From Pseudomonadota bacterium (GTDB lineage Bacteria > Bdellovibrionota > UBA2428): DNA of 64,000 bases. The notes beneath the pieces are model-generated. The model saw nothing but the letters and a program-made list of their open reading frames with translations. It did no database searches and was not told where the DNA came from. Positions 38,143 through 54,455 of this stretch are shown in pieces (positions within the stretch are counted from its first letter, which is position 1; each line of letters begins with the position of its first letter). Position numbers and translations under genes: made by a program. The stretch is from positions 2,905 through 66,904 of the forward strand of contig JAGNHS010000006.1 of assembly GCA_018001635.1 (NCBI GenBank), written 5' to 3'.

Positions 38143-39591
38143 TTATTTTGTACCTGCCAGCTTAGGGAGTGAGTCGATTGTGGCTTGTGAAATCGCATAG
38201 CCCCTAGTTTGAGCAAGTCTTGCAGAAAGTGCCGATACGTAGGGCACCATATGTTTTCCAGGGCAATCATGACCATCATTTACGTTGAGGCAAACTCCCG
38301 TTAGGCAATGTCCTTTATCTCTATGAGTTCGTACGTGTTCTATAGGATATTTCATAGCGATTTGATCTTGAAGTTTTGTGAGGAGAGTTACAACTTCTTC
38401 AGGCACGGCATCTTTATCGTAATCTCCTGCAATTGAAACTCCGATAGATCGAGCATTGCAATCAGACGCGTGACAACCGCGATAACCTAATGGAGTTCCT
38501 TCAAAAATTTTCCACTCTCCTCGAGCATCCTTCTTAATCACAAAATGATAACCCAAATCTTTAAAAGGTTTTTGAAAGCGGTGAAACAAACTCATATCGA
38601 CAAGATTGGGTGATTGAGATCCATCGGTGTGGTGAATAACTATTTCATCGTAGGTGAGTTCTTGTTTTCTTTCCTGGAACCATTTTGGGTCCTGAGAGCT
38701 GACAGTCTGAGTGCTATATTTTCTTTTTTTTCCATTCACAGAGGAAAGAGCGCGATACTTTTGTCCATGGGCTTCCTCAGACCACCATTGTGCGCGAGAT
38801 ACAATATTGACATTTGAATTTGGGCTAAATCTTCGAGAGCTCACTTTGCTTTTGGCATTTTTAAGAGCGTTTCTGTCATTTTCAACAAGGGATAGAAATT
38901 TTGAATGCTGATTTCGGTAATCACTACTAGATAAAGAGAGCCATAAACTGTCTTCAACACATTTAAATTTTTTAGAAATATTGGAATTTTTTAAGGCTTT
39001 AATGAGGGCCAATTGAGTCTGCGTGACTTCTTGTTCTAAGGAGTCATTCTTAACAAGGGCTTCTTGGTCCATTCCGTGGGTTTTCATTTTTACAAAAAAT
39101 CCCTTTTGCGAATGACTTAAAAAGAAATGTTCTTGCTTTTGAACGGCATTCAAATAATTTATAAGACTCAAGTTTAAGCTACTAATGGCGGACTTTGTTC
39201 GACTCTTTTGAGGCCCATCGCTGAGCTTAAGTTTGAGTCCTTCGATGAAAGAAATTCTTTCATCAAGGTGATCTTTGTTGATGTATATTGCAAGTTGATC
39301 GAGATCATTGACTAGACTTGAATCAGGACAGGCACCCTTGTTAAAAATAAATTCTATAGGATCTGAATCAGTTTTAATATTATTGTTTGAACTTTGAGGA
39401 GTTTTTGTGTTTTGAATTTCTTCTCTTGAGGTTGCTTTTGTTGTTGTGTTTTTGTTGCTGTTCGCCGGATTCCTGTGAAAAATTCTACTAAAAAAACTAT
39501 CTGTAGCTGAAAAAACTGCTGGTATTGAAATTAAATTCAACAAACCTAAAATAAAAAAAACAAATGAGTACTGAGTTTTTTTCATGCCCAC
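38143..39591 (-). CDS. Secreted N-acetylmuramoyl-L-alanine amidase (amidase_2/PGRP family) with a long N-terminal region
   Basis: Signal peptide. The C-terminal domain has IVIHHTDGS, GYHFVI, GCHASDCNARSIGVSIAGDY and HRDKGHCLTG. Confidence 0.65.
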   Translation of the reverse strand: MGMKKTQYSFVFFILGLLNLISIPAVFSATDSFFSRIFHRNPANSNKNTTTKATSREEIQNTKTPQSSNNNIKTDSDPIEFIFNKGACPDSSLVNDLDQLAIYINKDHLDERISFIEGLKLKLSDGPQKSRTKSAISSLNLSLINYLNAVQKQEHFFLSHSQKGFFVKMKTHGMDQEALVKNDSLEQEVTQTQLALIKALKNSNISKKFKCVEDSLWLSLSSSDYRNQHSKFLSLVENDRNALKNAKSKVSSRRFSPNSNVNIVSRAQWWSEEAHGQKYRALSSVNGKKRKYSTQTVSSQDPKWFQERKQELTYDEIVIHHTDGSQSPNLVDMSLFHRFQKPFKDLGYHFVIKKDARGEWKIFEGTPLGYRGCHASDCNARSIGVSIAGDYDKDAVPEEVVTLLTKLQDQIAMKYPIEHVRTHRDKGHCLTGVCLNVNDGHDCPGKHMVPYVSALSARLAQTRGYAISQATIDSLPKLAGTK

Positions 39592-39759: not shown

Positions 39760-42700
39760 TTATTTTTTCTTCTTATTCTCTGTTTTGAATAGTTTTCTAA
39801 GAAGTTTTACAACATTCACTTTTTCTTCTTCCTCGGAGATGAGTTGATAACCTACAAAGTTATCCATTTTAGCTTTCCCGATGAGGAATTGTCCAAGGGC
39901 ATCTTCTTCGCTGTAAGCTGTAAAGTTTATAGTTCCAAAGAATCGTGAATTGCCCATAACTTTTTCAATATTAGATTGAGCTGAATCGCTAAGATCTGCA
40001 ATGAGGTCGCCAAACATGAATGTGAAACGATCGTATTCAGAATCTGGAAATTTGGCTTGCACCTCTAAGGCTTTAGCCGCGCCCACTCCATAATCTGTGC
40101 CTCCACCCAGTTGGACTTTATAGAAGTCATTTTCATGGGCTTCGTCAAAATCATAAGCCACTCCGTCAAAAGCCACGTAGGTAAAAACGATGTTTTTATA
40201 TTTGTGTTTTAAAAGTGAGCGAATGTTGAAAATGATTTCCTTCATTTTCTCTACATATCCCATCATACTTCCTGATAGGTCAGAGATAATAGTGACATGG
40301 GCAGAGATGTCGGGGTCAGGTTGCTGCCGATGATTTTTAGAATGAATGTTTTTCTTCTGTAAAAAGTCCACGCCAACTTCGAAGGGGTCAAGCTCGGAGG
40401 TATCCTCGCCCTCTTCTTCTCGAAGGTTGATCACGCCGAGTCCGAGTTTAATGGCATCGCGAACAATTTTCTTAGCCACATAGGGTTTACGGTCTAAAGG
40501 TTGAGAGCCAACAAATATTTTACGCATTTGTTCGGTTTGTCCCTTGAGTGGTCTTAGGTTGGGTAACTCAACTTCATCCTTTATGAGGCTTTGATAAAGC
40601 TCTAATGGAATTTCAATATAAGAGGGGTCGCCACCGCCGCAGCCTTGACCATTTGAGGGTTTGCCTGTGTCACTATCCTCATCGCTACCTTCGTCGGGTT
40701 CTCCGTCGCCTTCACCATCACCGTCATTTCCATCGCCAGGCTGGTTTGAGGATTTTTCAACATAGTATTCCTTGTCCTTAAGACCTTGGGGCTGCAAAAG
40801 AAGTCCATCATCAGTTACAAAGGGATTGTTGTCTAAATCATTCACTTTTGAGAGTAATCTTTTTATTCCGTTTTGCGCACGTCGATCGAAGACTATTCCG
40901 CCAACTTCAGGCAGCACTTTGAGGCTATAGCCGCTGCCAGTTCGAGTGAGGCCACCATTGTTGGCCGCTTTTGAGAATGCCGCTAAAAATCTTTCTGCAA
41001 CTTTTTGGTGATATCGATTGAGTGCTTTGAGAATTCCGTGAGGAACTTCATTGAGTGCCATAGAACCTACAACATCGTTGATGTTTTTATAAATACTACC
41101 TAGAGGATCAATTTCAATTCCTTCTTTGTTTTTGAGAGTGCTGACAATTCCCTTTGGAACTTCAGTTTGATCGATATGGTAATCTATTAAAAATTCTCTT
41201 AAATTTTTAAATAGATGACCGTAAATTTCTTTGTCTACTGTAGATTTTTCTGCAGCCTCAGGAGTCCATTCTCTAAAGCTAGGCGTTTGATGAATTTCAA
41301 TTCCTTCTTCCCAAGAAGAATTACTATCCAATATTTCCATTTTTTTAAGAGTTGAGACGTTTATTTGTCCTTCAGGGTTGACTCTTATTTTCGCTCTAGC
41401 CAAGCGATATCCAATGACTTTCATTTTAGGTTTGAAACTAAACCAGTCCCACGTCACTTCTTTTATAACATCGATGATAAGTGTGGCTTCTAATTCAACA
41501 GTTTTCCTAAGTATTTTGGCCCAACTGAGTAGAGTAGGGGCTACAGTTTTTCTATTGATGGGTGTGAAGTAACCCATTTCATTACTCACAGATAATTTCG
41601 CAACATCATCTGTCTGATTGTGCAAATTATTCCAGACAACACGCGGATAGGCGTAGGAGAGGTTCCAGTCCTGTTGCACTTGATATCGAATACGTTCAGG
41701 ATCGTGAGTGATGACCTGATAGAGGGTGCCGTCCATATAATCTTGAGGAAGAGGAGCCCCTTGTTGAGCAAGTTGGAATTTTTCTTCGTTGCTGAATTTT
41801 TTAACTAGGGCTAGGTGCCTGTTTTTGATCCATTGATCAGTCAGCTTAGAAAAAATAAACATGACATTATTGCCAAGGTTTGGATTGTTTATGATTTCTC
41901 TAGCATAATTTATAAATTTTTGATCGCGCTCCATTCCTTCCAATTTAATGTTTTCAGGGCGCCTATTGAATTCTTCTCTAATTTCTCTCCAAATTTCGAG
42001 TCCGAGAAAATAAGGATTTGTGAGTGAGGGTCGCGCTACTCTTCCAGCGAGCATCCCAATTTCAGCAGCGTCACCAAAACTTCGTGCATAGTCGGGGTGA
42101 TGTGAGAAAATAATTTCCTCAACGAGCATGGCAAAACCTTCATTGAGTAACTTTGTGTTAACGGCACCAGGAATAAAGCGATTCATTTTTTCAAATTTTT
42201 TCGCCATTTCTAATTTCCAAGGTGCGATATCGCTTGGTAGTTCACTAACAAAGGCTTGAAGAAGGCTTACCGTTTGCTTTCCTGAACTCTGACTAGTCTG
42301 AACAAGGCCATCGCGCCATTGATTGAATCCTATGGGTCTGTCAGCCTTTAAGTCTTTAGGTTCTACATAGGCACCGCTCCAAACATCTTGTGCCATTTCA
42401 AGCGAAAGTAAATGGAAAAACCAATCCTCTACTTCTCGAGGATCTTCATATTTTCCAATATCTGTCATTAGTTCATCGAGCTCAACAGAAACTCCAACGC
42501 GATCATGGGAAGTTTTGTGTTTAAAGTAAGAATTCACATGGAAGAAATTATGGCCATAGACGTGAGCCAATATGTTCATGAATAATATGGGACTTAAGTT
42601 GCTCAAGTAATAGCTATGCTGTGTGCTGTGGCCCGAGAGTACAAATTCTAAAACCCCTTGAAGATTTCGTGCTTGATTGAAAATTGCGGCCCCGTCACTC

Positions 42701-42969
42701 CAGCTGCCGACAGGGTAACGATTCACCGCCGCCATTCCAGCCACTGAAGACGGATTGAGTAATTCTACAATATGTTTTTTTATGCCATTTAGAAGACCTA
42801 ATTTATCGGCGATGTCATGAACTTCAGCTAAACGTTTATGATATTCCGCTGCGTCAGGTTGGTTGTGCGAGTCCGCTATTAAGTGCTCTTGGCAGCTGAA
42901 AGAGTGTTGGGCAAAGATGAAGCTAAGGATACTGAGAAACTTTAGAGTGTTTAATCTAATAAAGCTCAT
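39760..42969 (-). CDS. Fusion protein with an N-terminal SpoVR/YcgB-family domain and a C-terminal YeaH/YhbH (DUF444, vWA-like) domain, preceded by a signal-peptide-like N-terminus
   Basis: SpoVR motifs LAHVYGHNFFHVNSYF, NEGFAMLVEEII and NPYFLGLEIWREI. An acidic/Gly linker (DGDGEGDGEPDEGSDEDSD...GCGGGD) is followed by ELPNL and the DUF444 vWA core HVTIISDLSGSMMGY...KYKNIVFTYV...FYKVQLGGGT. Its start overlaps the upstream stop (ATGA). Confidence 0.7.
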   Translation of the reverse strand: MSFIRLNTLKFLSILSFIFAQHSFSCQEHLIADSHNQPDAAEYHKRLAEVHDIADKLGLLNGIKKHIVELLNPSSVAGMAAVNRYPVGSWSDGAAIFNQARNLQGVLEFVLSGHSTQHSYYLSNLSPILFMNILAHVYGHNFFHVNSYFKHKTSHDRVGVSVELDELMTDIGKYEDPREVEDWFFHLLSLEMAQDVWSGAYVEPKDLKADRPIGFNQWRDGLVQTSQSSGKQTVSLLQAFVSELPSDIAPWKLEMAKKFEKMNRFIPGAVNTKLLNEGFAMLVEEIIFSHHPDYARSFGDAAEIGMLAGRVARPSLTNPYFLGLEIWREIREEFNRRPENIKLEGMERDQKFINYAREIINNPNLGNNVMFIFSKLTDQWIKNRHLALVKKFSNEEKFQLAQQGAPLPQDYMDGTLYQVITHDPERIRYQVQQDWNLSYAYPRVVWNNLHNQTDDVAKLSVSNEMGYFTPINRKTVAPTLLSWAKILRKTVELEATLIIDVIKEVTWDWFSFKPKMKVIGYRLARAKIRVNPEGQINVSTLKKMEILDSNSSWEEGIEIHQTPSFREWTPEAAEKSTVDKEIYGHLFKNLREFLIDYHIDQTEVPKGIVSTLKNKEGIEIDPLGSIYKNINDVVGSMALNEVPHGILKALNRYHQKVAERFLAAFSKAANNGGLTRTGSGYSLKVLPEVGGIVFDRRAQNGIKRLLSKVNDLDNNPFVTDDGLLLQPQGLKDKEYYVEKSSNQPGDGNDGDGEGDGEPDEGSDEDSDTGKPSNGQGCGGGDPSYIEIPLELYQSLIKDEVELPNLRPLKGQTEQMRKIFVGSQPLDRKPYVAKKIVRDAIKLGLGVINLREEEGEDTSELDPFEVGVDFLQKKNIHSKNHRQQPDPDISAHVTIISDLSGSMMGYVEKMKEIIFNIRSLLKHKYKNIVFTYVAFDGVAYDFDEAHENDFYKVQLGGGTDYGVGAAKALEVQAKFPDSEYDRFTFMFGDLIADLSDSAQSNIEKVMGNSRFFGTINFTAYSEEDALGQFLIGKAKMDNFVGYQLISEEEEKVNVVKLLRKLFKTENKKKK

Positions 42970-45900
42970 TTTTTCTCCTCAGGAATCAATAAATATTCGC
43001 AACGATCGCCGAATCCAGCATGATTTCTTTCCAATTCCGGAACCTTATCTCTTATGAGATCATTACCTTCTAAAAGTTGTGTGACGTATTCAACAGTAAG
43101 AGGTGAGAGTGGAGATTCTTCAGTTTTAAAGGCAAATTCAGCGAATTCAGCTCGGGTGCTGAGCGCGGGTTCGTCTATGATTTCTTCGAGCATTTTCATC
43201 ATGAAAACGTTGGCATTGTCCCAGGGTAGATTGGCAATGGCTTGGTCTATAGCCCAAAGAAAAATAATCGCTAAATCACTTGAGCTCAAATTTCTGTGGA
43301 GTCCTTTTTGTACTTCTTTGAGTTTGGGATTTAAAAAACCCTGATTAGAGACAAACATTTGAAAGAGGTCTCTTATTTTGTCTGTAGTGCTTGCAAATTC
43401 TTCACGCACTTCTTTTGAGTTTTTCATGGAATCAAGCCAAGCTTGAGAGTTGGATTCTTGAAATCCATTGGATTGATAAAATTTGTAAAACAAATTTTTC
43501 ATGAGCGATTCAATGTTGATAATTAAGCGGCTTATGTATTCACGTTGTCCTTCTTGTTCCTGAATTGAGCCTTTAATTTTTAAAAAATCATCTAGGGAAT
43601 CGCTCTCAAGAACGCTAGACGCGGGAAGTTTGAAAGGAATAACGGGTTTTGAATTATGATGAGCATCCATGAGGTCTTGGAATTCGGAAAGGAAACCAGA
43701 GTGGTTATTTATTTTTAATCGAACTGGGGATAGATCCAAATTCCAAAATCTTAATTCTGGACGATTTCTTAAGTTGAGATAGACTCCCGTGATGAGCGGT
43801 TTGAGGTAGTACATTTCATTTTGAAGACTCGCCCTAAAAAACTTATGATTTTGGATTGAGTTTATGAAATGATTATAAAAATTGATTCTAAAAGAGTTAG
43901 AATTAAATTCTGCGAAATCAAGTCTTCCGCGAAGGTTGTCAAAGGTGACTGGTTTTACAACAACATGTTTCTTAATTTGGTTTCTTAATGTGGTTGAATT
44001 TATAGTGGAACCACCTTCTTCCACTTGATGATCATCATTGTACCATTCATCAACATTCCAATCGTCTTTGAGGTCTTTGCTGTCATGGGTATCGCTTTTA
44101 GAGCTAGTCACATAATAGAGTGGAGCGGGGGCTAGAGAGTCATCTTTAGCTTCTGTGAATAGAGAGTTAGTAACGGGCATTAAAAAGTTTCGCGCGTGAG
44201 CTTTGGGGAAAATTTGTGCAATTTCAGAAAGAATATGTGGATTCACTAAAATCAGTTTGTTTGAAAGAGTTAATTCTTGGAGACTTCGAGCTCTGATTTT
44301 TGAAATCAAACCCGAGGCTTTGGCCTCACGTGGAAAATCACCAAAGTTAATGAGATCAGAAAAACGAGCTAAGATGGAGGGCTCATATTGAGCACCTTCA
44401 ACTTGTGAAAGTGCTGCAATGATTTGTGATTCAATAGAACTAGCATCATCGATATATTGATCTCTAATTTCACGATTGGATGCAGGGTTGATGGTTACAA
44501 ATAAAGAGATATTTCTAACAGGAATTTCGATGGTCATTTTATCTTCAAGACGAGAGACTCTGACCAAGTTGTTGTTCAGTAAGTTTTGGATATAAGACAT
44601 AACTCGACTGAGAACGTTGGCGTTCTTAGCTTTGTGAAGATCGTCAATAAGTATGAAACCTCGGTAGCCGAGAGGAAGTGATAAGAAATTGTCTAAGTGT
44701 TTCAGTGCGTCTTCAACATATAAACTTTTTCCAGTGGCTTCTTCTTTTTTATCTACCAAATCTTCTACTTTTAGGAAAAAGGCTTGAGCATTTTCATCTA
44801 AAGGTCTGTTGAAGTCGTAAACTTTTATATCGAGTAATTGGATGAGCTTCTCAAAGAAAAAAGTTTTTCCTAAACTTGTTTCACCGAAAAATACGGCTGA
44901 TGAGGGAATTTGCTTTGAACTATCGGACCCTTGAGTTTGCGAAAGAATAAGCCTGAAAATTCTTTCTTTGAGATCCAGTTGACCAGCATATCCTAGTTTT
45001 GTGAGATCCACTGCGGCTCGAGCGGTGTCTTTAATTTTATGAAGAACGTCTTCGGGTTCAAGGGATTTATAATTTAAGGGGATGGGGAAAACTTTGGCTA
45101 AAAATCTTTCTACATAGTTTTCGTCAATCACTCGACTTCTTCTGAGTTTATGGTCGTCGACTAATGATTTTCTAAAAATGGAATAGGAGCGTACAAAGGC
45201 TTCGATGGGTTCTTGATTGAGTGAATTGGCAACAGCTTCAATTCGATTGGCTAAAAATTTGGTGATGTTCAAAAACGGAGCGCTGTTTCTTTCGGCGCCA
45301 GATTCGTTTCCATTGTATCGAAATGAGTAATTCAGAGTTCTAATGTCTTCTCGATAGAATAAATTTCTCAAAATGTTAGAGCGGTGCTCTACGCTTGGAT
45401 ATTCAAGTCGAACTATTTCAAAATCTTTTTGAAGATCCATAAAATGCGACTCAAGGCCTAAATCTTTTTCTAAATCTTCGATTTGTTCAGGAGTGGCTAC
45501 AATAATTTCTGAAACGCTTGGGGTAGCTTCATCTCTTAAGCGCCATTGCTTTTTTAATTTAGGTTGGATTCTTCTACCTTCGGAGGCCAACCACCACATG
45601 ATGTGAGGGAAAATTGTATTGGGTTTGTCTATGTCGCTACGAGAAGAACTGTTTCCATCTTTGTCACTGCCTTCGTTGGGGCTGTTGGCGCTCGATTGAG
45701 CCTCGGAAGCCGTTTCAGCTAATAGCTCAGTTTTTTTCATGGCCGCAGGATCGCTAATTCTAAAAGGTTTGATGTCGCTTTTTTCTCCAACTAGTGGACG
45801 TTCATTGCGTAAAAGGTCGCTCGCATCTGCTAAAAGAACAACACTATTTTCTTGGCTGAGTCTTCTCATGGCGTCTAGATTGCCAAAGATTTCTTCTTGA

Positions 45901-48900
45901 TGAACTTTTCCACCTTGTGGATATCTGAATATTGAAAGATGGGGATTTCGAAAATTCCAGGAAGTGTTTAAATTTGGATTTCCATTAGTATCTCTTTCTA
46001 GGGCCACGTTGTAGCGACTCGACCAATGAGTCATTAAAAAGCGAAGCATGAGTTTTTTGATGTTTTCAGGGACAACTATGATTCTATGTTTAGGTTTTTC
46101 AGGTTTTTTAGAGAGCTCACTCAAAATGGGTCTTAAATTTGGGAAAACTTGAAGATCGTCTGAGGTGAGCGCACTCACCGACATTCTTCTGATGTCAGGA
46201 GTGGATCTCGGAGTGTTCGGAGGCCAGTTGTACCATTGTGAGGTTAAGAATCTTGCATCGATTTCAAATAGACCTTTGTCTACTAAGCCTGCTTTGAATT
46301 CATGAGGATGAGCTTCTTGAAGTTTTAAAAGTTTTTTAGGAGTTGTTAGAACAACAGTTGTCACAGATTTGAAGGAGTCTGATGGAGAGCTTAAATCTTT
46401 AAGGTGTCGTCCTTTTCCTTCCGTGGCTAAGAGAAAAAGTCCAGAAAGTTTATGGGGCGAAGAGGGATCGTAAATGTGATCAGACGAGGTTGAGCGTGCT
46501 GATTCGGAGAAGCTTTCTTCATCGAGTTCATCGCCACCTTGGTTTGTTTCTACAACTTCTGGTTCATCTTCTTCATGCTTGTGTTTAGTTCCTTTGTTTC
46601 TGCCGTCGTTCTCTTCTTCATCCTCTTCGTCATCTTCTGTCTTTTTGTTTGAAGCTTTAGACTCGGGATCATTATTAGCGCTTACGGTTTCGATTCCCAT
46701 TTGTCTTTCAGAGTCGCTTGAGGCGTAGTCGAGTATGCTAAACGAGGATGCACTGTCACTATCTTCAGAGTTTTTGCCGTCTGTTTCTAATATGAAAGTT
46801 TGTAAAAGCTCGTCGGAGCCTGCAAATAGTACGTTTTGTGTTGTTGATTCAGAGGCAAGTTTTAATTCCTTGCGCATTTCCCGAGCATCGGATTGATGGT
46901 CAAAGAAGTAGAGTTCAAAATCGTTTCCACCGGGTTTCCATTTAAGGGACCAACCTGTTTTTTTGTTATCGAGTTTAAGGAGCATGAGGTTATAAAAGTT
47001 GGCGTAGTCTTCGTCAGACACTACAAGGAAAGTTTTTTTACCTTTTTTAGAAGGATCTACGACTAAGGAATCTAGGTACTCGTCTAAGAGTGGGTAAAGT
47101 GGTCCTTTCCCCCCAGGTCCGAAATTTAAATCTTTATAAGTTTTAGCTTGCTCAGCTTCATTTCCGTCGAGTGCTTTGGAAAGTGTTGAATTAATTGAGC
47201 GTAATCCAGTGGAGGATGAAATGCTCCATCGACTTCCTATCCAAAATAAGCGACCCTCTTTTTCGTTTTCCTGAACAATTCTTTCTTTAAGGCGAATATT
47301 AATATTTTCTTTTGAGGGAACAACAAGTTTAGAGACGTAATTAAAACATCTCATTTTATATTTTGCAGAAAAATAATCTTCATTGGGAGTGTCAACCCAA
47401 TACAGGGCACCATTGCCATCGGGAAGCACTCGGTCGCTAATGCGATTGGCGGTCACATAACTTTTTGTAAGCCAACCTGAGGAATCTGGAATGTTGTTGG
47501 CTGTGAATTCAATTTTTCCAGCTTTGAGTTGAGATTGAATTTCGTATCCTAGCAGATACACGCCACCCGTGTTCTGACGAGTCCTTTTGAGAAAGAGCAT
47601 AACGTAAATGCTGTTAGCGTGCTTTCTTAAACCTTTAAAAACTCTTACACCCTCAATTTGAGAGAATGAAAATGGAAGCTCTCGTGTGGCGAAGAAAGTG
47701 TTCTTTATGTTTTCTCCAACTCGACCCTCGTAATTAAAAAGGGTCACAAGATTGAATTTTCCTTCTAAATTAGGTTGCTGAGAGTTGTTTGGAAGCATTC
47801 CAAACAAATGGATTTTGAAGGCTTCCAATTGCTTCGAAGATTCGCTGAGTGGAAGATGAATGTCAGTGGTGTATAGAACAGCACGAATGGAATCTTTGGA
47901 AATGGATGTTCTTGAATTTTTCTTTGTCTTTGTTTTTGAGCTATTGGAATAGATAAGCTGTCCGGGAATGAATGATGAATCATCTTTGTTTAAATGCGAT
48001 GTTGAATCAGCAGGTGTTTCGTGTCGATCTGCGGAATGCGTATCCTCAAGATAGACTCCGGTTTTTTCATTGAGTTGTGATTGTTTGTCGTTATTGAATT
48101 CTCGATAAACAACATGGGGGCTCATGATTACGGGAAACTCGTTTTTAGCTTGAAGAAATACTGTTTTCTTTTTGGGGTCGCTTTCAGAGACGTTAAGATA
48201 GGCGGTGACTCGCAGTCCTCCGGGATTTTTTTGAGAATCACTTCTATAGGTTTTGGGCCCCACGCGAGGAGTGCTGTTGTCGAAAACTAAACCAAGGTTT
48301 TCCACATTCTTGATTCGTAATTCTAGTTCTTCTTTGCTGAAACTGTACGTATTCGATATAACCTGCATGTCTTTAACGCTGACGTGACCCATGGATTCTT
48401 CAAGTTCAATCGCGAAAGTTCCCCCTCCAGGATAATATTGAGTTTTTCCTGATAAAATTAAATAATGTTTTTTGTAAACCGCACCAGAAATGAGTTCGTC
48501 ATCAGGGGTGTTGTCTGAAAATCCAAAAATGGGTGCTGATTTTCTTTTTTCGATTTTAGGTTGTGGAAGATCAAAGGACTCTAGAATTATAACGTTGTCG
48601 TTGTTGAAAGGGTCGAATTTGAGTTTGGTAAATTGTTCTTGAACTTCGACAACCTGAATACTTCTGTTTCTGGATTTTAGTCTTAACAGAATGCTTTTAT
48701 CCAATGAGAATAAAACCTCAACAGAGGAATCGTTTGAGAGAGATCGAGTTAAAAACTTTTTATTGTCTTGATCCCAGCTGAGTCTTCCTTTTTGGGGTGG
48801 AGTACCTTCATATTGAAAGGAGAGCCCATCTCCTAAGGGTTCAAAGAATTGAGTGACTCCCGAAATGGCCATGTTAGAAACTTGAGGTTCGGGTCTTTTC

Positions 48901-49844
48901 TCGAGGACATCCACTAAGGGAGGATTAGTGAGCACACTCAGTTTAAGAGATTTTCCAGAATTAATATCGATGTCTCTATATCGACTTGTAAAAGTTTTTT
49001 TATCGATTTTGGAATTGGGGTCGAGATAATCCAATAAAAGCTTCACTTTTTTTAACCAAATATCAACGAGAGGGTGCTCTTTGTCGTTTTTCCATTTTTC
49101 ATAAACTGTTTTTAGAAGATAGGGGGAGTATGCTTTGTCGGGTGAATAGTCGGCAAAAAGTCTTATGAGTCCTTGGTCTGTGGGGTGAAATCTATAATCG
49201 AGGAGCACCGGTTCAGATATTTTAAATTCACCTGTTTCGATGCCTCCGTTTTTAACAATAGCAAAAGTGATTCCGTCAGAACCCATTTGAGGAATGCCTT
49301 GCTTAACTGAGATGATATACATACACGAGTTGTCTACAGGGTATTGTACAATCGTGATGTCTTTGGGGTCCTTTATGTTTTCAAGATAAATTTTACGTTT
49401 CGTGAGAGGATCGATGATTGGGACGGGAGTGGCAAATTTGTTGGGTATTTTTTGGGATTCATTAGCGCCAATAATGAGTGAGCTGGCTGCTTTTTTTTCT
49501 GAAGTGTTTTTGTTAACGATATAAATTTGTCCATCGAGAATGACTAAGGCTTCTTGATTTCCTTGTTGAGTGACAGGAGCTAAGAGTACAAAAGTTTCAG
49601 CGGATCGCTTATTCACGCCAAGCACTTCTTTTTGAATCAGTGGAGTAGAGTTTTCAGCTCCAGTATTAAAAAAATAAATTCCCTTTTTTTTGCCATTGAG
49701 TTCAGTGTTGAATACCAACTCGTATAAGGCTCTTGCATTATGAGGATGTGGAAAAATGAAAGACCCCTCGTCGGCCGCGCGTAAGGCTCCACTTTGTCCG
49801 ACAAGTAGGGCGGCAAGGGCAATATGTTTGAGGAGGTGTCTCAT
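42966..49844 (-). CDS. Giant (2292 aa) secreted protein with a Clp/Hsp100-like AAA+ ATPase domain and a poly-acidic low-complexity region
   Basis: Signal peptide (LKHIALAALLVGQSGALRA). Walker A FFGETSLGKT and Walker B GFILIDDLHKA, with ...LFVTINPASN resembling the Clp D2 core. A long Asp/Glu/Ser tract (TEDDEEDEEENDG...). The remainder is unassigned. Confidence 0.6.
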   Translation of the reverse strand: MRHLLKHIALAALLVGQSGALRAADEGSFIFPHPHNARALYELVFNTELNGKKKGIYFFNTGAENSTPLIQKEVLGVNKRSAETFVLLAPVTQQGNQEALVILDGQIYIVNKNTSEKKAASSLIIGANESQKIPNKFATPVPIIDPLTKRKIYLENIKDPKDITIVQYPVDNSCMYIISVKQGIPQMGSDGITFAIVKNGGIETGEFKISEPVLLDYRFHPTDQGLIRLFADYSPDKAYSPYLLKTVYEKWKNDKEHPLVDIWLKKVKLLLDYLDPNSKIDKKTFTSRYRDIDINSGKSLKLSVLTNPPLVDVLEKRPEPQVSNMAISGVTQFFEPLGDGLSFQYEGTPPQKGRLSWDQDNKKFLTRSLSNDSSVEVLFSLDKSILLRLKSRNRSIQVVEVQEQFTKLKFDPFNNDNVIILESFDLPQPKIEKRKSAPIFGFSDNTPDDELISGAVYKKHYLILSGKTQYYPGGGTFAIELEESMGHVSVKDMQVISNTYSFSKEELELRIKNVENLGLVFDNSTPRVGPKTYRSDSQKNPGGLRVTAYLNVSESDPKKKTVFLQAKNEFPVIMSPHVVYREFNNDKQSQLNEKTGVYLEDTHSADRHETPADSTSHLNKDDSSFIPGQLIYSNSSKTKTKKNSRTSISKDSIRAVLYTTDIHLPLSESSKQLEAFKIHLFGMLPNNSQQPNLEGKFNLVTLFNYEGRVGENIKNTFFATRELPFSFSQIEGVRVFKGLRKHANSIYVMLFLKRTRQNTGGVYLLGYEIQSQLKAGKIEFTANNIPDSSGWLTKSYVTANRISDRVLPDGNGALYWVDTPNEDYFSAKYKMRCFNYVSKLVVPSKENINIRLKERIVQENEKEGRLFWIGSRWSISSSTGLRSINSTLSKALDGNEAEQAKTYKDLNFGPGGKGPLYPLLDEYLDSLVVDPSKKGKKTFLVVSDEDYANFYNLMLLKLDNKKTGWSLKWKPGGNDFELYFFDHQSDAREMRKELKLASESTTQNVLFAGSDELLQTFILETDGKNSEDSDSASSFSILDYASSDSERQMGIETVSANNDPESKASNKKTEDDEEDEEENDGRNKGTKHKHEEDEPEVVETNQGGDELDEESFSESARSTSSDHIYDPSSPHKLSGLFLLATEGKGRHLKDLSSPSDSFKSVTTVVLTTPKKLLKLQEAHPHEFKAGLVDKGLFEIDARFLTSQWYNWPPNTPRSTPDIRRMSVSALTSDDLQVFPNLRPILSELSKKPEKPKHRIIVVPENIKKLMLRFLMTHWSSRYNVALERDTNGNPNLNTSWNFRNPHLSIFRYPQGGKVHQEEIFGNLDAMRRLSQENSVVLLADASDLLRNERPLVGEKSDIKPFRISDPAAMKKTELLAETASEAQSSANSPNEGSDKDGNSSSRSDIDKPNTIFPHIMWWLASEGRRIQPKLKKQWRLRDEATPSVSEIIVATPEQIEDLEKDLGLESHFMDLQKDFEIVRLEYPSVEHRSNILRNLFYREDIRTLNYSFRYNGNESGAERNSAPFLNITKFLANRIEAVANSLNQEPIEAFVRSYSIFRKSLVDDHKLRRSRVIDENYVERFLAKVFPIPLNYKSLEPEDVLHKIKDTARAAVDLTKLGYAGQLDLKERIFRLILSQTQGSDSSKQIPSSAVFFGETSLGKTFFFEKLIQLLDIKVYDFNRPLDENAQAFFLKVEDLVDKKEEATGKSLYVEDALKHLDNFLSLPLGYRGFILIDDLHKAKNANVLSRVMSYIQNLLNNNLVRVSRLEDKMTIEIPVRNISLFVTINPASNREIRDQYIDDASSIESQIIAALSQVEGAQYEPSILARFSDLINFGDFPREAKASGLISKIRARSLQELTLSNKLILVNPHILSEIAQIFPKAHARNFLMPVTNSLFTEAKDDSLAPAPLYYVTSSKSDTHDSKDLKDDWNVDEWYNDDHQVEEGGSTINSTTLRNQIKKHVVVKPVTFDNLRGRLDFAEFNSNSFRINFYNHFINSIQNHKFFRASLQNEMYYLKPLITGVYLNLRNRPELRFWNLDLSPVRLKINNHSGFLSEFQDLMDAHHNSKPVIPFKLPASSVLESDSLDDFLKIKGSIQEQEGQREYISRLIINIESLMKNLFYKFYQSNGFQESNSQAWLDSMKNSKEVREEFASTTDKIRDLFQMFVSNQGFLNPKLKEVQKGLHRNLSSSDLAIIFLWAIDQAIANLPWDNANVFMMKMLEEIIDEPALSTRAEFAEFAFKTEESPLSPLTVEYVTQLLEGNDLIRDKVPELERNHAGFGDRCEYLLIPEEKK

Positions 49845-49862
49845 TTTCCAGCTTTACTCAGT

Positions 49863-52463
49863 TTATTTTTTGTCGTGCTTGTTGACGTGCTCCACTAAGA
49901 ATCGAAGCGCTTGCACGAAAGATCTCTCGTTGTATCCGTATCTTTCCAAGTTGCTGAGTATCTTTTGCCCAGCCGTTTGAGTTTCAGTGGCCACGGATCT
50001 TCCTTGCATGAAATCAAGGAGGCTTTGGTAGCTGTTAGTTTTTAAGTTCTGACTCATCAACCAATCAGAAATAGCTTTTTCAAGCTTAATCCACATGGGG
50101 AGGGGTGATCCGTCAGTATTATGAAGCGCTAAATTGGCAACATAAGCTTGGAGATCTGGGGGATTAAGATCGTCGCCCCAGCGTTTTCTAAAGGCCTTTT
50201 TAATTTCAGTGAGTCTATCAAAATTGATGGCAGTAGGTATGTCGCCTTTTGATTTAGTGTGGTGTGTGGCTTTAGAGTCTTGCGCTAAGTGTGAAATTTC
50301 CGAAGTGACTGCATCGTAAATACTGCGCACTTTATTGGTGTCGTTAGCAATAATCGAGTTCACATCGTTCATGAGCTTAGGAAGTATGAGCTCTGCTGCA
50401 ATTCTCTCGGCGAGTTCGAGCCATTTAGCGTATTCAGGGCGTTCCTTTTGAAATTGGTTTTCGTGAAGGGTGAGTCTAAAGGCGTCTTTTATTTCTACAG
50501 GAGTTAAAGTGTTTGAATGTCCGGGAGATTGTGCGAGTTCAAGGGCCTTTTTAAAGACCACTTCAATATCGCGTTGTCCAATTCCATTATCGCCTTCATT
50601 GAGAAGAGCTTCCTTTGAGAATTCCGTTAAAGCCGCTAGAACTTCTTGATTCTCAACAACTTCATCTCCTGTGATAATTCGAAGACGGTCAATTGGGTCG
50701 GTGAACCATCTTAGATCGGGACGTGTGATACGAGTGAGAATGTTGGCGTCTTTGAGTTTATCGATATTTGTTTCAAGCGAAGAGCCTGCGGCAATGCATC
50801 CCAAGAAATATAGCGAATAGGGTGAAATATCGACAAAGGAACTTTTGCTAGCGCTGATTTCAGCTGGCGAATCAATTTTAACTCTTACGGCGTAATGACC
50901 CTCAGGGCCTGAAATATTTCCATTGCTGTCGGGTTCTGCATAAATTTCCTTGATGAGGGGTGAATTTGAGCTTTCGTTTAGTGTGGCGAGATTTTTGTGT
51001 TCTGTTGAATCCAATTTGCGTGCACTAAAGTTATTGGGTTTGAGAGTGAGTAAAAGTGCAAGCTCTCTCCATCTTGGATGGAGGAGGTTTTTCATGGCAA
51101 TATGTTGTAAGCGAGATAGAAGAGCGTCGGTGTCCATGCGTTTTTTGGAATCTGCAATGGAACTATAGTTTGCAGAAAACACATTAAAGGTGTCCATCGC
51201 TAAAGCGGGGGTGTCTGAACCTTTGGCGACGCCTTCTTGTAATACAGAAAGTAGGAAGTGGAGAACTACGGGGTCGTTTCGAGTAACGTCGTCCCAAATG
51301 ATCATGGAGCCATCGTTTTGAGAGAGGGGTCCGTTAAAATGGAAGCCGAGAGTGTTATTGGCGCCTTTAATTCTTGCGGCTACGTTGGCAGTTCCAATTA
51401 AAGAAGAGGTGTCGGGGGCTTCTTCCATAGGACGAATAATGGGATCGCGATTGGAGGCAAGGCTGATGTCTTTTCTTGCAATACCCACAAAATTTTCAAA
51501 TATGGCTAAATAGTCAGCTACGGTGAGAGAAGTTGCTTTTGTGGCTTTTAAAATATGTTTTTTATAAAAAGGAATGAGAAATTCTCTTAGGATATCTTCT
51601 GCATGAGAATCGCGGGCGACAGCTTGGCCAGGATTTCTTTCGTAGAAATCACCAATGTCGAAACCTAACATTTTAGAGGCGGTGGCACCTAGAGTTTTTG
51701 CGTAAGCCACTTTGAGTTCGGTGGGAAGTAGGCTGAAGGGACTTCTTTGAAGGCTTGTAACATTAAGGCGATCGCTATCTTTGACTAAGAATTGATCGAG
51801 TCTTTGACCTAATGAAGGATCAGTTTGTTTTATCATGTCCAAATTTTTCCAAAAATAGGTGTATTCCTTGAATAGAGGATCTCGAACTGAGAGGTGGGCT
51901 AGGGCATATCGAATGACGTATTCGAGAACTGTTTTTCCAGTTCCTGGAGGTCCCTTTAAAAGTGGTCCTTTACTTCCGCGCATACCTTGTGCGGCTTCGG
52001 AGATGATTTTTGCCAAGCTCGAGCTAGCTTCATATTGGCCTACGAGAAAAAGTCCGCCAGTTGCGGGCAAGGCATCATGATAGACTTTGGGAACATTATA
52101 ATATTGGTGCTTGTAGACGGGGTCTAAAACTCGGCGATATCCAAAATTATTCAAGACCGCTAATTGTTTTTGATCAGCATTCATTAAAAGTAAGGGATGC
52201 TCTTTTATGAGATCGGGTAATTTTGAAAAAGGATACTCTACGGCGTATTCTTCGGTGCCGGCAATAGCTAGTTGAGCCACTGTTTCGGGCACTAAAAGAG
52301 TTGAGCATAATTTTGGATCAACATGAAAACTTTTAGGAGTGCTAGTTGTTGATTTAGCCGCGGATGCTTTTTTGCTTTCTGCTGCAAATGAAAAATTTTC
52401 TAAGCTCATTAAAAAAATAACGACGTGTGTAATTTTTAGAATTGTAGGTAGGCTTTTTCTCAT
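49863..52463 (-). CDS. Divergent PrkA/YeaG-like AAA+ serine protein kinase homolog with a signal-peptide-like N-terminus
   Basis: Walker A LLKGPPGTGKT. The region LIGTANVAARIKG...GPLSQNDGSMIIWDD...VLHFLLSVLQEGVA parallels PrkA LVGKVD...GALCRANQGIMEFVE...LHPLLTATQEGNY. The C-terminus GYNERSFVQALRFL parallels PrkA GYTRKQVRLLCEW. Homology assignment is from recollection of YeaG. Confidence 0.55.
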   Translation of the reverse strand: MRKSLPTILKITHVVIFLMSLENFSFAAESKKASAAKSTTSTPKSFHVDPKLCSTLLVPETVAQLAIAGTEEYAVEYPFSKLPDLIKEHPLLLMNADQKQLAVLNNFGYRRVLDPVYKHQYYNVPKVYHDALPATGGLFLVGQYEASSSLAKIISEAAQGMRGSKGPLLKGPPGTGKTVLEYVIRYALAHLSVRDPLFKEYTYFWKNLDMIKQTDPSLGQRLDQFLVKDSDRLNVTSLQRSPFSLLPTELKVAYAKTLGATASKMLGFDIGDFYERNPGQAVARDSHAEDILREFLIPFYKKHILKATKATSLTVADYLAIFENFVGIARKDISLASNRDPIIRPMEEAPDTSSLIGTANVAARIKGANNTLGFHFNGPLSQNDGSMIIWDDVTRNDPVVLHFLLSVLQEGVAKGSDTPALAMDTFNVFSANYSSIADSKKRMDTDALLSRLQHIAMKNLLHPRWRELALLLTLKPNNFSARKLDSTEHKNLATLNESSNSPLIKEIYAEPDSNGNISGPEGHYAVRVKIDSPAEISASKSSFVDISPYSLYFLGCIAAGSSLETNIDKLKDANILTRITRPDLRWFTDPIDRLRIITGDEVVENQEVLAALTEFSKEALLNEGDNGIGQRDIEVVFKKALELAQSPGHSNTLTPVEIKDAFRLTLHENQFQKERPEYAKWLELAERIAAELILPKLMNDVNSIIANDTNKVRSIYDAVTSEISHLAQDSKATHHTKSKGDIPTAINFDRLTEIKKAFRKRWGDDLNPPDLQAYVANLALHNTDGSPLPMWIKLEKAISDWLMSQNLKTNSYQSLLDFMQGRSVATETQTAGQKILSNLERYGYNERSFVQALRFLVEHVNKHDKK

Positions 52464-52608: not shown

Positions 52609-53148
52609 ATGCGAGTCGTTTTTGTTTTTTCTTTTTTATGGGCTGCGCTTCTTTATTCTGCCACAACGAGTCAAGATTCTGCGAGCACTATATATTTTAA
52701 GGTGCTCAAGGGTTTTGATGTAGAAAAAAAGAAATCAAATGCTGAAGTAGACGCATTAGTCGGCAAAAAAATTCGCATTCCTGGATTTATGGTTCCTCTT
52801 GAATATAAATCTCAAAAGGTGACTGAGTTTTTGTTAGTACAGTCTCTTCCCTCTTGCATTCACGTACCTCCCCCCTCTCCTAATCAAACCATTATGGTGA
52901 AGATGAAGGATAAAAAAACAGTGTCTTTGAGTATGGATCCCATTTGGGTGACAGGAATCTTAAAATTGGTCAAACAAGACAAATATACATTTGGTGATGC
53001 CGTTTATAGCATTGAGGGCGAGTCTTCTGCTCCTGTAGATTCAAAAGACTTTAATAAAGTGGGTTTATTTATGGGAGATCAGGTGGATATGGCTCCTTTA
53101 GAGGAGAATCCTTTTGGTGGTGAGAGTAAAACTAAGAAAAAGAAATAG
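52609..53148 (+). CDS. DUF3299-like periplasmic protein
   Basis: Signal peptide. The FLLVQSLPSCIHVPPPSPNQ motif is characteristic of DUF3299 (assignment from recollection). Confidence 0.5.
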   Translation: MRVVFVFSFLWAALLYSATTSQDSASTIYFKVLKGFDVEKKKSNAEVDALVGKKIRIPGFMVPLEYKSQKVTEFLLVQSLPSCIHVPPPSPNQTIMVKMKDKKTVSLSMDPIWVTGILKLVKQDKYTFGDAVYSIEGESSAPVDSKDFNKVGLFMGDQVDMAPLEENPFGGESKTKKKK

Positions 53149-53185
53149 AAATAGTTTAAGAAATAGACTTAAAGGGTACGACATT

Positions 53186-53761
53186 ATGAAAAAGCATTTT
53201 TTAAAATCCCTAACATTAAGTTTGTGTCTCTCAATAACTTTGATGGCCAAAGAAAAACATCATCATCATGAGTCTTTGGCAAAGCATATTCACGGTGAAG
53301 CTAATCTCAATTTGATACTTGAAGATGATAAAAAGGGTGAGCTTGAATTTGAGGCCCCTGGCATGGATGTCGTTGGATTTGAATACGATGCCAAAACACC
53401 CAAGGAAAAAGAGAAGCTCAATCAAGTTTTGTCAGAATTTAAAAGCAAAGCTCAAGAATTATTTGTTTTGGATGCAAGTCTAAAATGCGTTTTAACTCCT
53501 AAAGAGGTGGCCTGGGAATCGGAGGATCACGAAGAGCCTGAAGGCGTTCATAGAGATCATGAAAAACAGCCCGTCGCAGAACATCATGCGATTGAAGCTT
53601 CTTACTCTATAAATTGTCAAAAGCCTCTTAAGGGGACTCGTTTTAATTTGGAGCTTTTCAAAAAATTTAAATCGTTAAAAAAAGTCAATTTTCAGTATAT
53701 GGGCAGCAATCTTCAGCGGGCCAGCGAGTTGTCTGCTGGAAAGTCTAGCATTGAGCTCTAA
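53186..53761 (+). CDS. His-rich periplasmic metal-binding protein, ZrgA/DUF2796-like
   Basis: Signal peptide. HHHHE, HIHGE and HRDHEKQPVAEHH tracts. The start is set at the internal ATG at 53186 (MKKHF). Confidence 0.5.
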   Translation: MKKHFLKSLTLSLCLSITLMAKEKHHHHESLAKHIHGEANLNLILEDDKKGELEFEAPGMDVVGFEYDAKTPKEKEKLNQVLSEFKSKAQELFVLDASLKCVLTPKEVAWESEDHEEPEGVHRDHEKQPVAEHHAIEASYSINCQKPLKGTRFNLELFKKFKSLKKVNFQYMGSNLQRASELSAGKSSIEL

Positions 53762-54455
53762 AGAGTCCATTTCTGTAGAGGCTTTAGAGTTTTCATATGT
53801 AAGAAATTCTAAGCCCTTGTTAAAAATTCCTGATTTAAAAATATTAAATGGAGATAGAGTTTTTTTATTTGGCCCAAGTGGTTCCGGAAAAAGCACCTTG
53901 CTTTCATTGCTCACTGGAGTTTTGAAACCTCAAAAAGGCAAGATAACACTTTTAAATAATTTTGAAATATCTCAGGCTAATACTATGGCGGCCGATATTT
54001 TTCGGGGGGCGCATATGGGGTATATATTCCAGCAGTTTAATTTGCTTCCTCATTTAAGCGTGCGCGAAAATATTTCATTAGTTTTGGATTTAAATCCTCT
54101 CCGATTAAATAAAGTTTTAAAATCAAGCACTGTTGAATTGGAAATTAAAAGATTAGCTCAACATTTAGAGATTGAAAATATCTTAGATCGCTCTGCAATG
54201 GCTATTAGTGTTGGTCAGCAACAACGAGTTGCCGCTGCTCGTGCCTTAATTGGTGCTCCGGACATTATTATTGCTGATGAACCCACATCTTCTTTGGATA
54301 CAGATCGCCGAGATCTTTTTATGAAAATGATTCTTAGTGAAGTTGAATTGAGTCAAAGCACTTTGATTTTTGTGAGTCATGATCAAAGTTTGATGAAGCA
54401 TTTTAATAAGCATTTTTCTATTCTGGATTGGAGTGCAGAGGGAGTCGTGCAGTGA
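53751..54455 (+). CDS. ABC transporter ATP-binding protein
   Basis: Walker A GPSGSGKST, Q-loop, signature VGQQQRVAAARAL and Walker B IIIADEPTSSLD. Confidence 0.85.
   Translation: MSSKESISVEALEFSYVRNSKPLLKIPDLKILNGDRVFLFGPSGSGKSTLLSLLTGVLKPQKGKITLLNNFEISQANTMAADIFRGAHMGYIFQQFNLLPHLSVRENISLVLDLNPLRLNKVLKSSTVELEIKRLAQHLEIENILDRSAMAISVGQQQRVAAARALIGAPDIIIADEPTSSLDTDRRDLFMKMILSEVELSQSTLIFVSHDQSLMKHFNKHFSILDWSAEGVVQ

Follow-up and report, generated by a model that had tools for sequence, protein, structure and literature searches.

The window, as we call the whole 64,000-nucleotide stretch of DNA that was analyzed, carries an operon that probably encodes a Sec-exported paralogue of the PrkA-YeaH-SpoVR module, seen so far in predatory-type lineages only. 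PrkA/YeaG, YeaH/YhbH (DUF444) and YcgB/SpoVR form one of the most widespread gene trios of bacteria, and the operon would represent a relocated, fused and extended natural variant of it. As in the canonical module, three homologous domains are encoded together and retain the PrkA ATP site, the MIDAS and ELPN motifs of DUF444 and the HxxGH, NEGFA and NPY motifs of SpoVR. Elsewhere the genes of the canonical trio show tight cofitness and in most cases share one operon (bioRxiv 10.1101/072470), and the canonical copy of B. bacteriovorus, bd0228-bd0231, belongs to the attack-phase core genes (PMC5430801). Unlike the canonical proteins, the three products, which we refer to as A, B and C, all carry predicted signal peptides and are depleted of cysteine with conserved terminal Cys motifs, SpoVR and DUF444 make up a single fusion protein in the reverse order, and a gene for a Clp-like protein of 1800-2300 aa interrupts the set. 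Partial BLAST alignments with canonical proteins show only approximately 21-32% identity. A literature search retrieved no description of an exported PrkA-SpoVR-YeaH variant with a Clp-like ATPase.

The three genes are tightly packed on the minus strand (Table 1). The ORF list agrees with the initial annotation in the sizes of A (866 aa), B (2292 aa) and C (1069 aa) as well as in both junctions: 18 nt separate the stop codon of A from the ATG of B, while B and C share an ATGA overlap that is preceded by GAGGAG. Comparison with a 96%-identical MAG gave dN/dS values of 0.036-0.038 per gene, which marks A, B and C as real genes under strong purifying selection; the three are also co-linear. Scans for promoters and terminators did not yield more sites than shuffled sequence, and on inspection by eye no sequence upstream of A looked like a convincing sigma-54 promoter. 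Neither secretion-system genes nor sorting signals nor a protease partner are linked to the operon. We rejected the idea of a defence system because a PADLOC search gave zero matches. A secreted Amidase_2 protein is encoded 168 nt downstream of the operon; this gene was rejected as a part of the module because the other loci do not conserve it.

Table 1. Genes, domains and motifs of the operon (positions in the window; aa numbering from the called start).
Feature	Position	Strand	Evidence
Gene A, PrkA-like AAA+ protein, 866 aa, predicted exported	49863..52463	-	ORF; Pfam PrkA C-terminal and AAA_PrkA; 9xip profile match; dN/dS 0.037
A signal peptide, aa 1-27 (MRK…FSFA/AES)	52383..52463	-	n/h/c pattern; present in all A orthologues
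A Cys53 (LCSTLL), conserved, N-terminal	52305..52307	-	Cys shortly past the signal peptide in every A orthologue
A Walker A GPPGTGKT, aa 171-178	51930..51953	-	G176 and K177 invariant, 8-lineage alignment
A Walker B MIIWDD, aa 387-392	51288..51305	-	D391 invariant, 8-lineage alignment
A PrkA C-terminal domain, aa 592-710	50334..50690	-	PF06798, 26.6 bits, cut-off 25
Gene B, giant protein, 2292 aa, predicted exported	42966..49844	-	ORF; family of 174 representatives; dN/dS 0.036
B signal peptide, aa 1-23 (MRHLLKHIALAALLVGQSGALRA/AD)	49776..49844	-	Heuristic; 100/114 full-length representatives alike
B N-terminal region, aa 24-850, conserved, no recognisable domain	47295..49775	-	Conservation profile
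B variable region, acidic low-complexity insert, aa 851-1200	46245..47294	-	High gap fraction in alignment
B degenerate first AAA+ tier (pseudo-D1), about aa 1240-1610, no P-loop	45015..46127	-	Foldseek, 700-800 columns aligned to two-tier Clp proteins
B active AAA+ tier (D2), about aa 1620-1900	44145..44987	-	
B Walker A GETSLGKT, aa 1654-1661	44862..44885	-	G1654, G1659 and K1660 invariant, 27-sequence alignment
B Walker B FILIDD, aa 1730-1735	44640..44657	-	D1734 and D1735 invariant
B C-terminal helical domain, aa 1950-2292, with conserved Cys2282 (RCEYLL)	42969..43997	-	AF2 model secondary structure
Gene C, SpoVR-DUF444 (YeaH) fusion, 1069 aa, predicted exported	39760..42969	-	ORF; Pfam and NCBIfam matches; dN/dS 0.038
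C signal peptide, aa 1-25, then invariant Cys26	42895..42969	-	Start fixed by ATGA overlap
C SpoVR domain, aa 100-397, HVYGH 136-140 and NEGFA 276-280	41779..42672	-	PF04293, 46.6 bits, cut-off 27
C acidic Gly/Asp/Glu-rich linker, aa 745-775	40645..40737	-	Sequence
C DUF444 vWA-like domain, aa 867-1064, MIDAS DLSGS 897-901, GGT 956-958, D988	39778..40371	-	PF04285, 60.7 bits, cut-off 27

Profile searches recovered the PrkA, DUF444 and SpoVR domains that the initial annotation had named. For A, the match to the PrkA C-terminal domain lies above the Pfam cut-off and recurs in 4/8 members of the A family; the score against AAA_PrkA (PF08298) is 20.5 bits and thus under the cut-off of 25, and all eight members match this profile at E <= 0.01. 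The A-family profile also matches a solved ‘Serine protein kinase’ (9xip) with an E value of 3e-25 in three stretches that cover the whole protein. Next to the Walker residues, N432 (sensor 1) and R451 are likewise invariant in the 8-lineage alignment. A accordingly reads as a divergent full-length PrkA-type AAA+ protein whose ATP-site residues are conserved. Weak matches to Mg_chelatase, AAA_5 and bpMoxR were seen among family members. All orthologues possess a signal-peptide-like N-terminus, unlike the cytoplasmic PrkA/YeaG proteins, and shortly after it a Cys followed by x-x-x-[LFV], which is the sole Cys in some of them.

The fusion of SpoVR to DUF444 in C was borne out by both Pfam matches. 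The SpoVR domain lies N-terminal to the DUF444 domain, and the order is therefore reversed relative to the canonical prkA-DUF444-spoVR arrangement, which we observed in control loci such as L030. In 12/12 lineages, DUF444 is the C-terminal part of a fusion with SpoVR rather than a stand-alone protein of ~400 aa encoded between prkA and spoVR. C keeps every motif common to canonical SpoVR and YeaH: E108, H136, H140, NEGFA and NPY are shared with eight canonical SpoVR proteins, and the residues of the vWA MIDAS (DxSGS, GGT and D988) are invariant with canonical DUF444 proteins included. Judged by these motifs, C comprises a complete SpoVR domain, an acidic linker and a DUF444 vWA domain whose MIDAS is intact. 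The variant constrains the function of the module, as SpoVR and vWA would act as one unit with SpoVR at the N-terminus and all shared catalytic-looking residues are kept.

B is the least recognizable of the three proteins by sequence. Pfam gives just a weak AAA_22 match, AAA_2, ClpB_D2-small and Clp_N are without a Pfam or NCBIfam match, and the B profile retrieved ClpX and ClpB from the PDB at E > 0.1 only. Pfam and PDB sequence searches with the N-terminal region (aa 24-850) yielded no match, and a search for internal repeats in the N-terminus found none. The Clp-like core that had been proposed for B emerged from the structure prediction: an AlphaFold model of the C-terminal half (pLDDT 82) matches the double-ring Clp/Hsp100 ATPases ClpC, ClpA, ClpB and Hsp104 and contains their fold of tandem AAA+ tiers. 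A single-sequence AlphaFold prediction of aa 1393-2292 reached a pLDDT of 34 and was kept out of all fold searches. In the pseudo-D1 tier, Clp-D1-like stretches (IIVATPEQ… and FEIVRLEYPSVEHRSNILRNL) are visible, and there is no GxxGxGK[ST] motif; the P-loop position reads VPxELK in the family consensus, and the sole GxxxxGK[ST] motif of B is the Walker A of D2. In D2, conservation extends to the Walker A, Walker B, sensor-1 and Arg residues, and the ATP site is invariant across 27 sequences of 22-50% identity. According to the model, B consists of a two-tier Clp/Hsp100-like AAA+ body behind an extension of ~1200 residues without a recognisable fold, with a D1 that appears degenerate and a D2 that is predicted to be ATP-competent. 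The Walker B motif ends in D-D and never in D-E throughout the B family, as it does in A of the window and of L001, which might indicate that hydrolysis is slow or absent. Conservation of C2282 is complete or at least 90%, and a Cys is present within the last 30 aa in 102/114 representatives. A reading of B as a second PrkA was rejected because hhalign of the A and B profiles paired the P-loop alone (probability 21%).

We compared the module with known AAA+ systems. The C-terminal half of B would have its two-tier architecture in common with the type II unfoldases ClpA, ClpB, ClpC and Hsp104. Unlike these, B lacks a significant sequence match to Clp families, a P-loop in D1, a Clp_N domain, an evident ClpP-docking loop and a linked protease, and adds the N-terminal extension of 1200 aa, a C-terminal helical domain of 340 aa and a signal peptide. 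The variant suggests that a Clp-like motor can be plugged into the module. A and C resemble the AAA+/vWA-MIDAS pairs MoxR-vWA, BchI-BchD of Mg-chelatase and midasin, in which an AAA+ ring is encoded with a vWA protein that carries an intact MIDAS after an acidic linker. In contrast to these systems, A is of the PrkA type, not MoxR or BchI, and SpoVR joins as a third partner; to our knowledge, all examples of AAA+/vWA-MIDAS partner systems are cytoplasmic. Signal-peptide-bearing AAA+ proteins exist in eukaryotes, namely HSP101 of the Plasmodium PTEX and the Torsins, which have other partners than those found here, and a common descent with B is not evident beyond the Clp fold.

A survey of gene neighborhoods found the A-B-C order conserved between unrelated flanking genes in about ten divergent Bdellovibrionota/Oligoflexia lineages and in one Bradymonadales genome (the window, L009, L001/2, L003, L004-6, L007, L014, L016, L017 and L089). 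One lineage (L010) encodes A and C only and lacks B. In L004, a neighboring gene encodes a D-Ala-D-Ala ligase. The predatory host that the initial annotation had assumed fits with L009, which is 96% identical and derives from an uncultured Bacteriovoracaceae MAG, and Bradymonadales are predators as well (PMC7460792). The module has so far been found only in these predatory-type lineages (Bdellovibrionota including Oligoflexia, and the Bradymonadales genome), a restriction that is based on nine GTDB genomes retrieved by one peptide pattern.

The N-termini of all three proteins had been noted as signal-peptide-like, and this description held up (A, MRKSLPTILKITHVVIFLMSLENFSFA followed by AE; B, MRHLLKHIALAALLVGQSGALRA followed by AD; C, MSFIRLNTLKFLSILSFIFAQHSFS followed by CQ). 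Using our own heuristic, which is liberal and passes 23/45 ORFs of the window, together with inspection, we found such N-termini in 28/28 family proteins and in 0/24 canonical controls; all 28 display a positively charged n-region, an h-region of 7-15 residues and an AXA c-region. Among 114 full-length B representatives, at least 100 are signal-peptide-like and the remaining 14 resemble truncated gene calls. The family proteins contain 0.23% Cys compared to 0.87% in canonical proteins, a four-fold depletion. We rejected a lipoprotein reading of the conserved Cys because a lipobox is missing and the Cys sits 1-26 residues past the AXA site. By all appearances, the family carries short, positively charged, hydrophobic signal peptides of the AXA type followed by acidic residues, which the canonical homologues lack. 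Since the signal-peptide counts and the Cys depletion separate the family from the controls, we infer that export is a conserved family property. We know of no AAA+ ATPase that functions in the bacterial periplasm, a compartment held to lack ATP, and two conserved ATP sites are for this reason hard to reconcile with a periplasmic location. If export holds true, the module contradicts the rule that confines ATP-driven AAA+ machines to the bacterial cytoplasm and would represent an unrecognised prey-directed weapon or envelope machine of bacterial predators.

How the exported proteins might act can be proposed by analogy only, as the canonical module itself has no established biochemical role (bioRxiv 10.1101/072470; PMC13001217). 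A, B and C would be translocated by Sec, cleaved by signal peptidase I and assembled outside the predator cytoplasm, either in its own periplasm or, if a further secretion step follows, within or at the prey. Going by other pairs of AAA+ and vWA proteins, C may dock through its vWA MIDAS on a ring formed by A, and A might remodel C itself or a client that SpoVR holds. For B, a function in unfolding or threading, as a motor, can be proposed. Each protein has a single conserved Cys, located at the mature N-terminus in A and C and at the C-terminus in B, and intermolecular disulfides between these residues may staple the complex in an oxidising compartment. As both ATP sites are conserved, the machine would most likely work where nucleotide is available, which for an intraperiplasmic or contact predator means invaded or permeabilised prey, and action in or on prey is plausible. 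It is a good deal more speculative, and on balance unlikely, that the predator secretes a disulfide-stapled assembly of PrkA-like ring, Clp-like motor and SpoVR-vWA effector into or onto prey, where prey ATP would drive the unfolding, extraction or translocation of prey macromolecules. Such an assembly would be a functional analogue of Plasmodium PTEX/HSP101 and the first bacterial AAA+ machinery outside the producer cytoplasm; the ATP supply of the HSP101 and Torsin compartments is established, in contrast to that of the A-B-C module.

Alternatively, the exported module might stay in the predator periplasm and work on the envelope, in peptidoglycan remodelling or the formation of a cyst or cortex-like layer, with the AAA+ proteins as nucleotide-independent or nucleotide-locked scaffolds. 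Members of the SpoVR family have been linked to formation of the cortex in both Bacillus and Myxococcus (cited in PMC5430801), and an envelope function would recall the part that SpoVR and CbgA play in forming the spore cortex. The D-D Walker B of B and the lack of a visible further secretion signal would fit as well. Peptidoglycan genes sometimes adjoin the operon (Amidase_2 in the window, D-Ala-D-Ala ligase in L004), but the adjoining genes differ between loci, and cyst formation is not known for most carriers. Scaffold AAA+ proteins are also difficult to reconcile with the Walker A Lys, the Walker B acidic pair, the sensor-1 Asn and the Arg, which are invariant at 22% identity and therefore argue that the ATP site is used. 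We regard an envelope role as improbable.

Less probable still is a cytoplasmic location. If the hydrophobic N-termini were mis-called starts, cytoplasm-facing tethers or amphipathic helices instead of export signals, the operon would encode an ordinary cytoplasmic PrkA-YeaH-SpoVR paralogue with a Clp-like partner and the ATP paradox would disappear. The liberal heuristic favors such a reading, as does L004, where the called start of C lacks a hydrophobic segment; the missing segment is, however, present in frame just upstream. Start sites further downstream, raised by the initial annotation as a way in which export could fail, do not explain the hydrophobic N-termini: such a segment recurs without sequence conservation in every orthologue, and a stop/start overlap conserved in several lineages fixes where C begins. 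Just 10/27 of the hydrophobic segments reach the length of a membrane helix, and internal ones are essentially absent. Net charge is +1.7 on the N-flank and -1.5 on the C-flank of the segment, and this positive-before/acidic-after pattern together with the short h-regions fits cleaved N-in signals rather than cytoplasmic anchors. The signal-peptide counts of the family against the canonical controls, as well as the Cys depletion, which fits extracytoplasmic proteins, point in the same direction.

Equally doubtful is a secreted translocation or unfolding machine in which a hexameric B motor like HSP101 of Plasmodium PTEX uses prey ATP to thread proteins across the prey cytoplasmic membrane or extract them from it, with A and C as its regulators or priming factors: the carrier taxa are intraperiplasmic or contact predators (PMC7460792) and both ATP sites are conserved, but the operon lacks a linked membrane pore component, the likeness is to Clp/Hsp100 in general and not to PTEX specifically, and L010 dispenses with B, which is therefore not core.

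Our preferred reading, an exported paralogue of the PrkA-YeaH-SpoVR module, concerns a family whose apparent size depends on the search used. An exact look-up of the C sequence gave no record, and a metagenome scan with the C profile was saturated by canonical SpoVR and added one locus that was already known. Word-indexed homologue searches returned six matches for C, two for A and one for B. The full HMMER scan with B revealed 174 representatives. With ~150 clusters at 50% identity, all of them metagenomic, the B family is sizeable and uncharacterised.

The three minus-strand ORFs, here termed A, B and C, together span 39760-52463. The initial annotation had described them as tightly packed, and both the 18-nt A/B spacing and the ATGA overlap at the B/C junction, which is preceded by a Shine-Dalgarno GAGGAG, were found in the ORF coordinates. 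Protein C corresponds to GenBank MBP7843660.1, encoded on an 80-kb MAG contig. The window is 96% identical to the L009 contig of an uncultured Bacteriovoracaceae MAG, and dN/dS values against it of 0.037 (A), 0.036 (B) and 0.038 (C) indicate that all three are most probably expressed, constrained genes.

Features of the module and its surroundings (positions refer to the window)
Feature	Position	Strand	Description
Gene A	49863-52463	minus	ORF, 866 aa
Gene B	42966-49844	minus	ORF, 2292 aa
Gene C	39760-42969	minus	ORF, 1069 aa
A Cys53	52305-52307	minus	just past signal peptide, mature N-terminus
C Cys26	42892-42894	minus	just past signal peptide, mature N-terminus
B Cys2282	42999-43001	minus	11 residues from C-terminus
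Acidic linker in B	46500-46800		strongly acidic, low-complexity, aa ~1040-1140, EDDEEDEEEND…
Acidic linker in C	40645-40737		strongly acidic, low-complexity, aa 745-775, GDGNDGDGEGDGEPDEGSDEDSD
Amidase_2 gene	38143-39591	minus	482 aa, secreted, C-terminal N-acetylmuramoyl-L-alanine amidase domain
Sigma-54-dependent transcriptional activator	26707-28620	plus	Sigma54_activat + HTH_8
Five consecutive ORFs	55866-61766		671, 219, 246, 373 and 431 aa, no Pfam match at E <= 0.001
Four-gene cluster	52609-55711	plus	DUF3299, ZrgA-family zinc-uptake protein, ABC ATPase, MacB/FtsX-type permease; divergent from A

Protein A had been read as a PrkA homologue, and this assignment held. The PrkA C-terminal domain scored above the Pfam cut-off, the PrkA AAA domain fell slightly short of it, AAA_PrkA was matched in 8/8 aligned orthologues, and the A-family profile matched 9xip (a solved 'Serine protein kinase', E 3e-25) in the PDB over three stretches representing the whole chain. 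Walker A G176 and K177, Walker B D391, N432 and R451 are invariant among orthologues of 21-45% identity. The proposed composition of protein C was equally borne out by Pfam (SpoVR aa 100-397, DUF444 aa 867-1064) and NCBIfam (YhbH match starting at aa 745), with both domains matched in 6/6 aligned C members. In an alignment of C with canonical proteins (eight SpoVR, seven DUF444), all columns conserved to at least 90% were kept, including E108, H136, H140, NEGFA 276-280 and NPY 318-320 of SpoVR and the MIDAS set of DUF444 (D897-x-S-G-S901, GGT 956-958, D988). The DUF444 ELPN motif is present in most C members (L802 94% conserved). Since control loci such as the canonical locus L030 read prkA-DUF444-spoVR, the N-terminal position of SpoVR makes the order of the fusion reversed, as first suggested.

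By sequence, protein B showed a weak AAA_22 match alone and no significant match in the PDB. An AlphaFold2 model of aa 1193-2292 was built on a 27-sequence alignment (pLDDT 82.4, pTM 0.74). The best 50 Foldseek matches of this model were all double-ring Clp/Hsp100 proteins (ClpC, ClpA, ClpB, Hsp104; E 7e-14 to 2e-11, 700-800 aligned columns), which argues for the Clp-like AAA+ core that had been predicted. The first tier (~aa 1240-1610) lacks a P-loop while Clp-D1-like strands and motifs persist; in the second tier Walker A G1654, G1659 and K1660, Walker B D1734 and D1735 as well as N1778, N1786 and R1827 are invariant. Neither the N-terminal ~1200 residues nor the C-terminal helical domain matched anything known. 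The idea that B is a second PrkA was rejected after comparison of the A and B profiles. B also carries an acidic linker, and the region containing it is missing from more distant orthologues.

Signal peptides were called by eye and with a simple heuristic for n-, h- and c-regions. The 28 family proteins, drawn from about ten lineages, all passed: a positive n-region leads into an uncharged h-region (8-12 residues), positions -3/-1 are small, and acidic residues follow. Of the canonical PrkA, DUF444 and SpoVR controls 0/24 passed, whichever of the first start codons was taken. The exported nature postulated for A, B and C is matched by signal-peptide-like starts throughout the family. The heuristic is liberal (23/45 ORFs pass in a window rich in signal-peptide-like starts), and we therefore place weight on the contrast between family and canonical proteins and on the fact that the feature is conserved where the sequence is not. 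An apparent exception was protein C of locus L004, where the start was mis-called and the missing segment is found in frame a short way upstream. The database call of the fusion starts there at an internal GTG (L004:10001; also at loci L005 and L006), and with the in-frame sequence upstream (…KNLLILSFCFFSIVSFS|EEEKC) the signal peptide is complete again. Among full-length B representatives 100/114 passed; the other 14 start at or past the conserved mature N-terminal motif and look like N-terminally truncated gene calls. Because the C start codon overlaps the B stop in the window and at loci L001, L003, L014 and L008, translation of C is fixed at the signal-peptide methionine. On average, the flank preceding the hydrophobic core has a net charge of +1.7 and the one following it -1.5, only 10/27 N-terminal segments reach the membrane-helix hydrophobicity threshold (19 residues), and there are practically no candidate helices further inside the proteins. 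This pattern fits N-in signals that are cleaved better than it fits anchors. Cysteine makes up 0.23% of residues in the family (B representatives, 0.17%) compared with 0.87% in the canonical controls, a four-fold depletion of the family that is typical for proteins of an oxidising compartment. We conclude from these sequence features that A, B and C share export as a predicted property, both conserved and selected.

Each protein keeps a single conserved cysteine near one terminus, and its context is alike in all three, C-[E/A/D]-x-x-[F/L]; the one near the C-terminus of B is present in 102/114 representatives. In several orthologues it is the sole cysteine, which makes an intramolecular disulfide impossible there. 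The terminal cysteines may form intermolecular disulfides stapling a complex, or may represent a common docking or modification site.

The SpoVR-DUF444 fusion was found in six 90%-identity clusters only (word-indexed database). Among loci with enough DNA, the A-B-C order recurs with differing neighbours at L001/2, L003, L004-6, L007 and L089, and also in GTDB genomes labelled Bdellovibrionales, Pseudobdellovibrionaceae, Oligoflexia and Bradymonadales; any restriction to predators is judged from few genomes and one search pattern. When the C-terminal 1200 residues of B were used in a full HMMER scan, 174 representatives at 50% identity were returned, 146 of them with E <= 1e-30; lengths are 1750-2330 aa in nearly all cases. 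B thus defines a closed, sizeable family, and all members sampled are metagenomic. In a two-gene variant (L010:884-6450, Bdellovibrionales MAG VK3_bin-0444) A is directly followed by C with no B between, and both products carry signal peptides. This makes A-C the core and B an accessory.

The canonical module is homologous to the putatively exported system in all three parts; what sets the latter apart is its localisation signal, the order of its genes and domains, and its composition. A literature search found no paper on signal-peptide-bearing PrkA, DUF444 or SpoVR proteins, on a SpoVR-DUF444 fusion or on the giant B family. In B. bacteriovorus, a canonical prkA-unknown-spoVR operon is among the attack-phase core genes (PMC5430801). 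The canonical trio acts as one functional unit, its three genes showing strong cofitness in each of six bacteria (bioRxiv 10.1101/072470). PrkA was reported as an ATP-dependent protease (PMC9512850), and the latest report describes an AAA+ ATPase whose kinase and protease activities are negligible (PMC13001217). The biochemistry of the trio is unsettled. PrkA has also been reported as a kinase. Like the module, MoxR-vWA and chelatase systems combine a ring-forming AAA+ protein with a vWA-MIDAS partner bearing an acidic linker; there, the ring is contacted through the MIDAS, and a client is remodelled at the expense of ATP. As the exported variant keeps all AAA+/vWA elements, with SpoVR hard-wired to the vWA domain, it would be expected to carry out the core chemistry of the canonical trio at a new site. 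With B, the module would gain a Clp-like motor for threading or unfolding, equipped with a large extension that binds targets. Where the module is localised, its activity as an ATPase, its assembly into a complex and any role in predation are what we infer.

The main difficulty is energy: ATP sites are conserved in A and B, yet we know of no usable ATP in the periplasm. To our knowledge, the AAA+ proteins working beyond the cytosol (Torsins, PTEX HSP101) are eukaryotic; both are among the best structural matches of B. For intraperiplasmic or contact predators the nucleotides would come from prey, and this obvious source makes a prey-directed role attractive, if unproven.

The operon is flanked by genes unrelated to the module. 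One flank carries guaB-guaA-purN-like genes and the Amidase_2 gene, which follows C on the same strand after 168 nt and is not conserved beside the module at other loci. Canonical yeaG of E. coli is under NtrC/sigma-54 control; the window encodes a sigma-54-dependent activator, and inspection by eye of the region upstream of gene A revealed no convincing sigma-54 promoter. A run of five ORFs without Pfam matches also lies in the window. The other flank, divergent from A, holds the DUF3299-ZrgA-ABC-FtsX cluster, which resembles a metal (zinc) uptake system.
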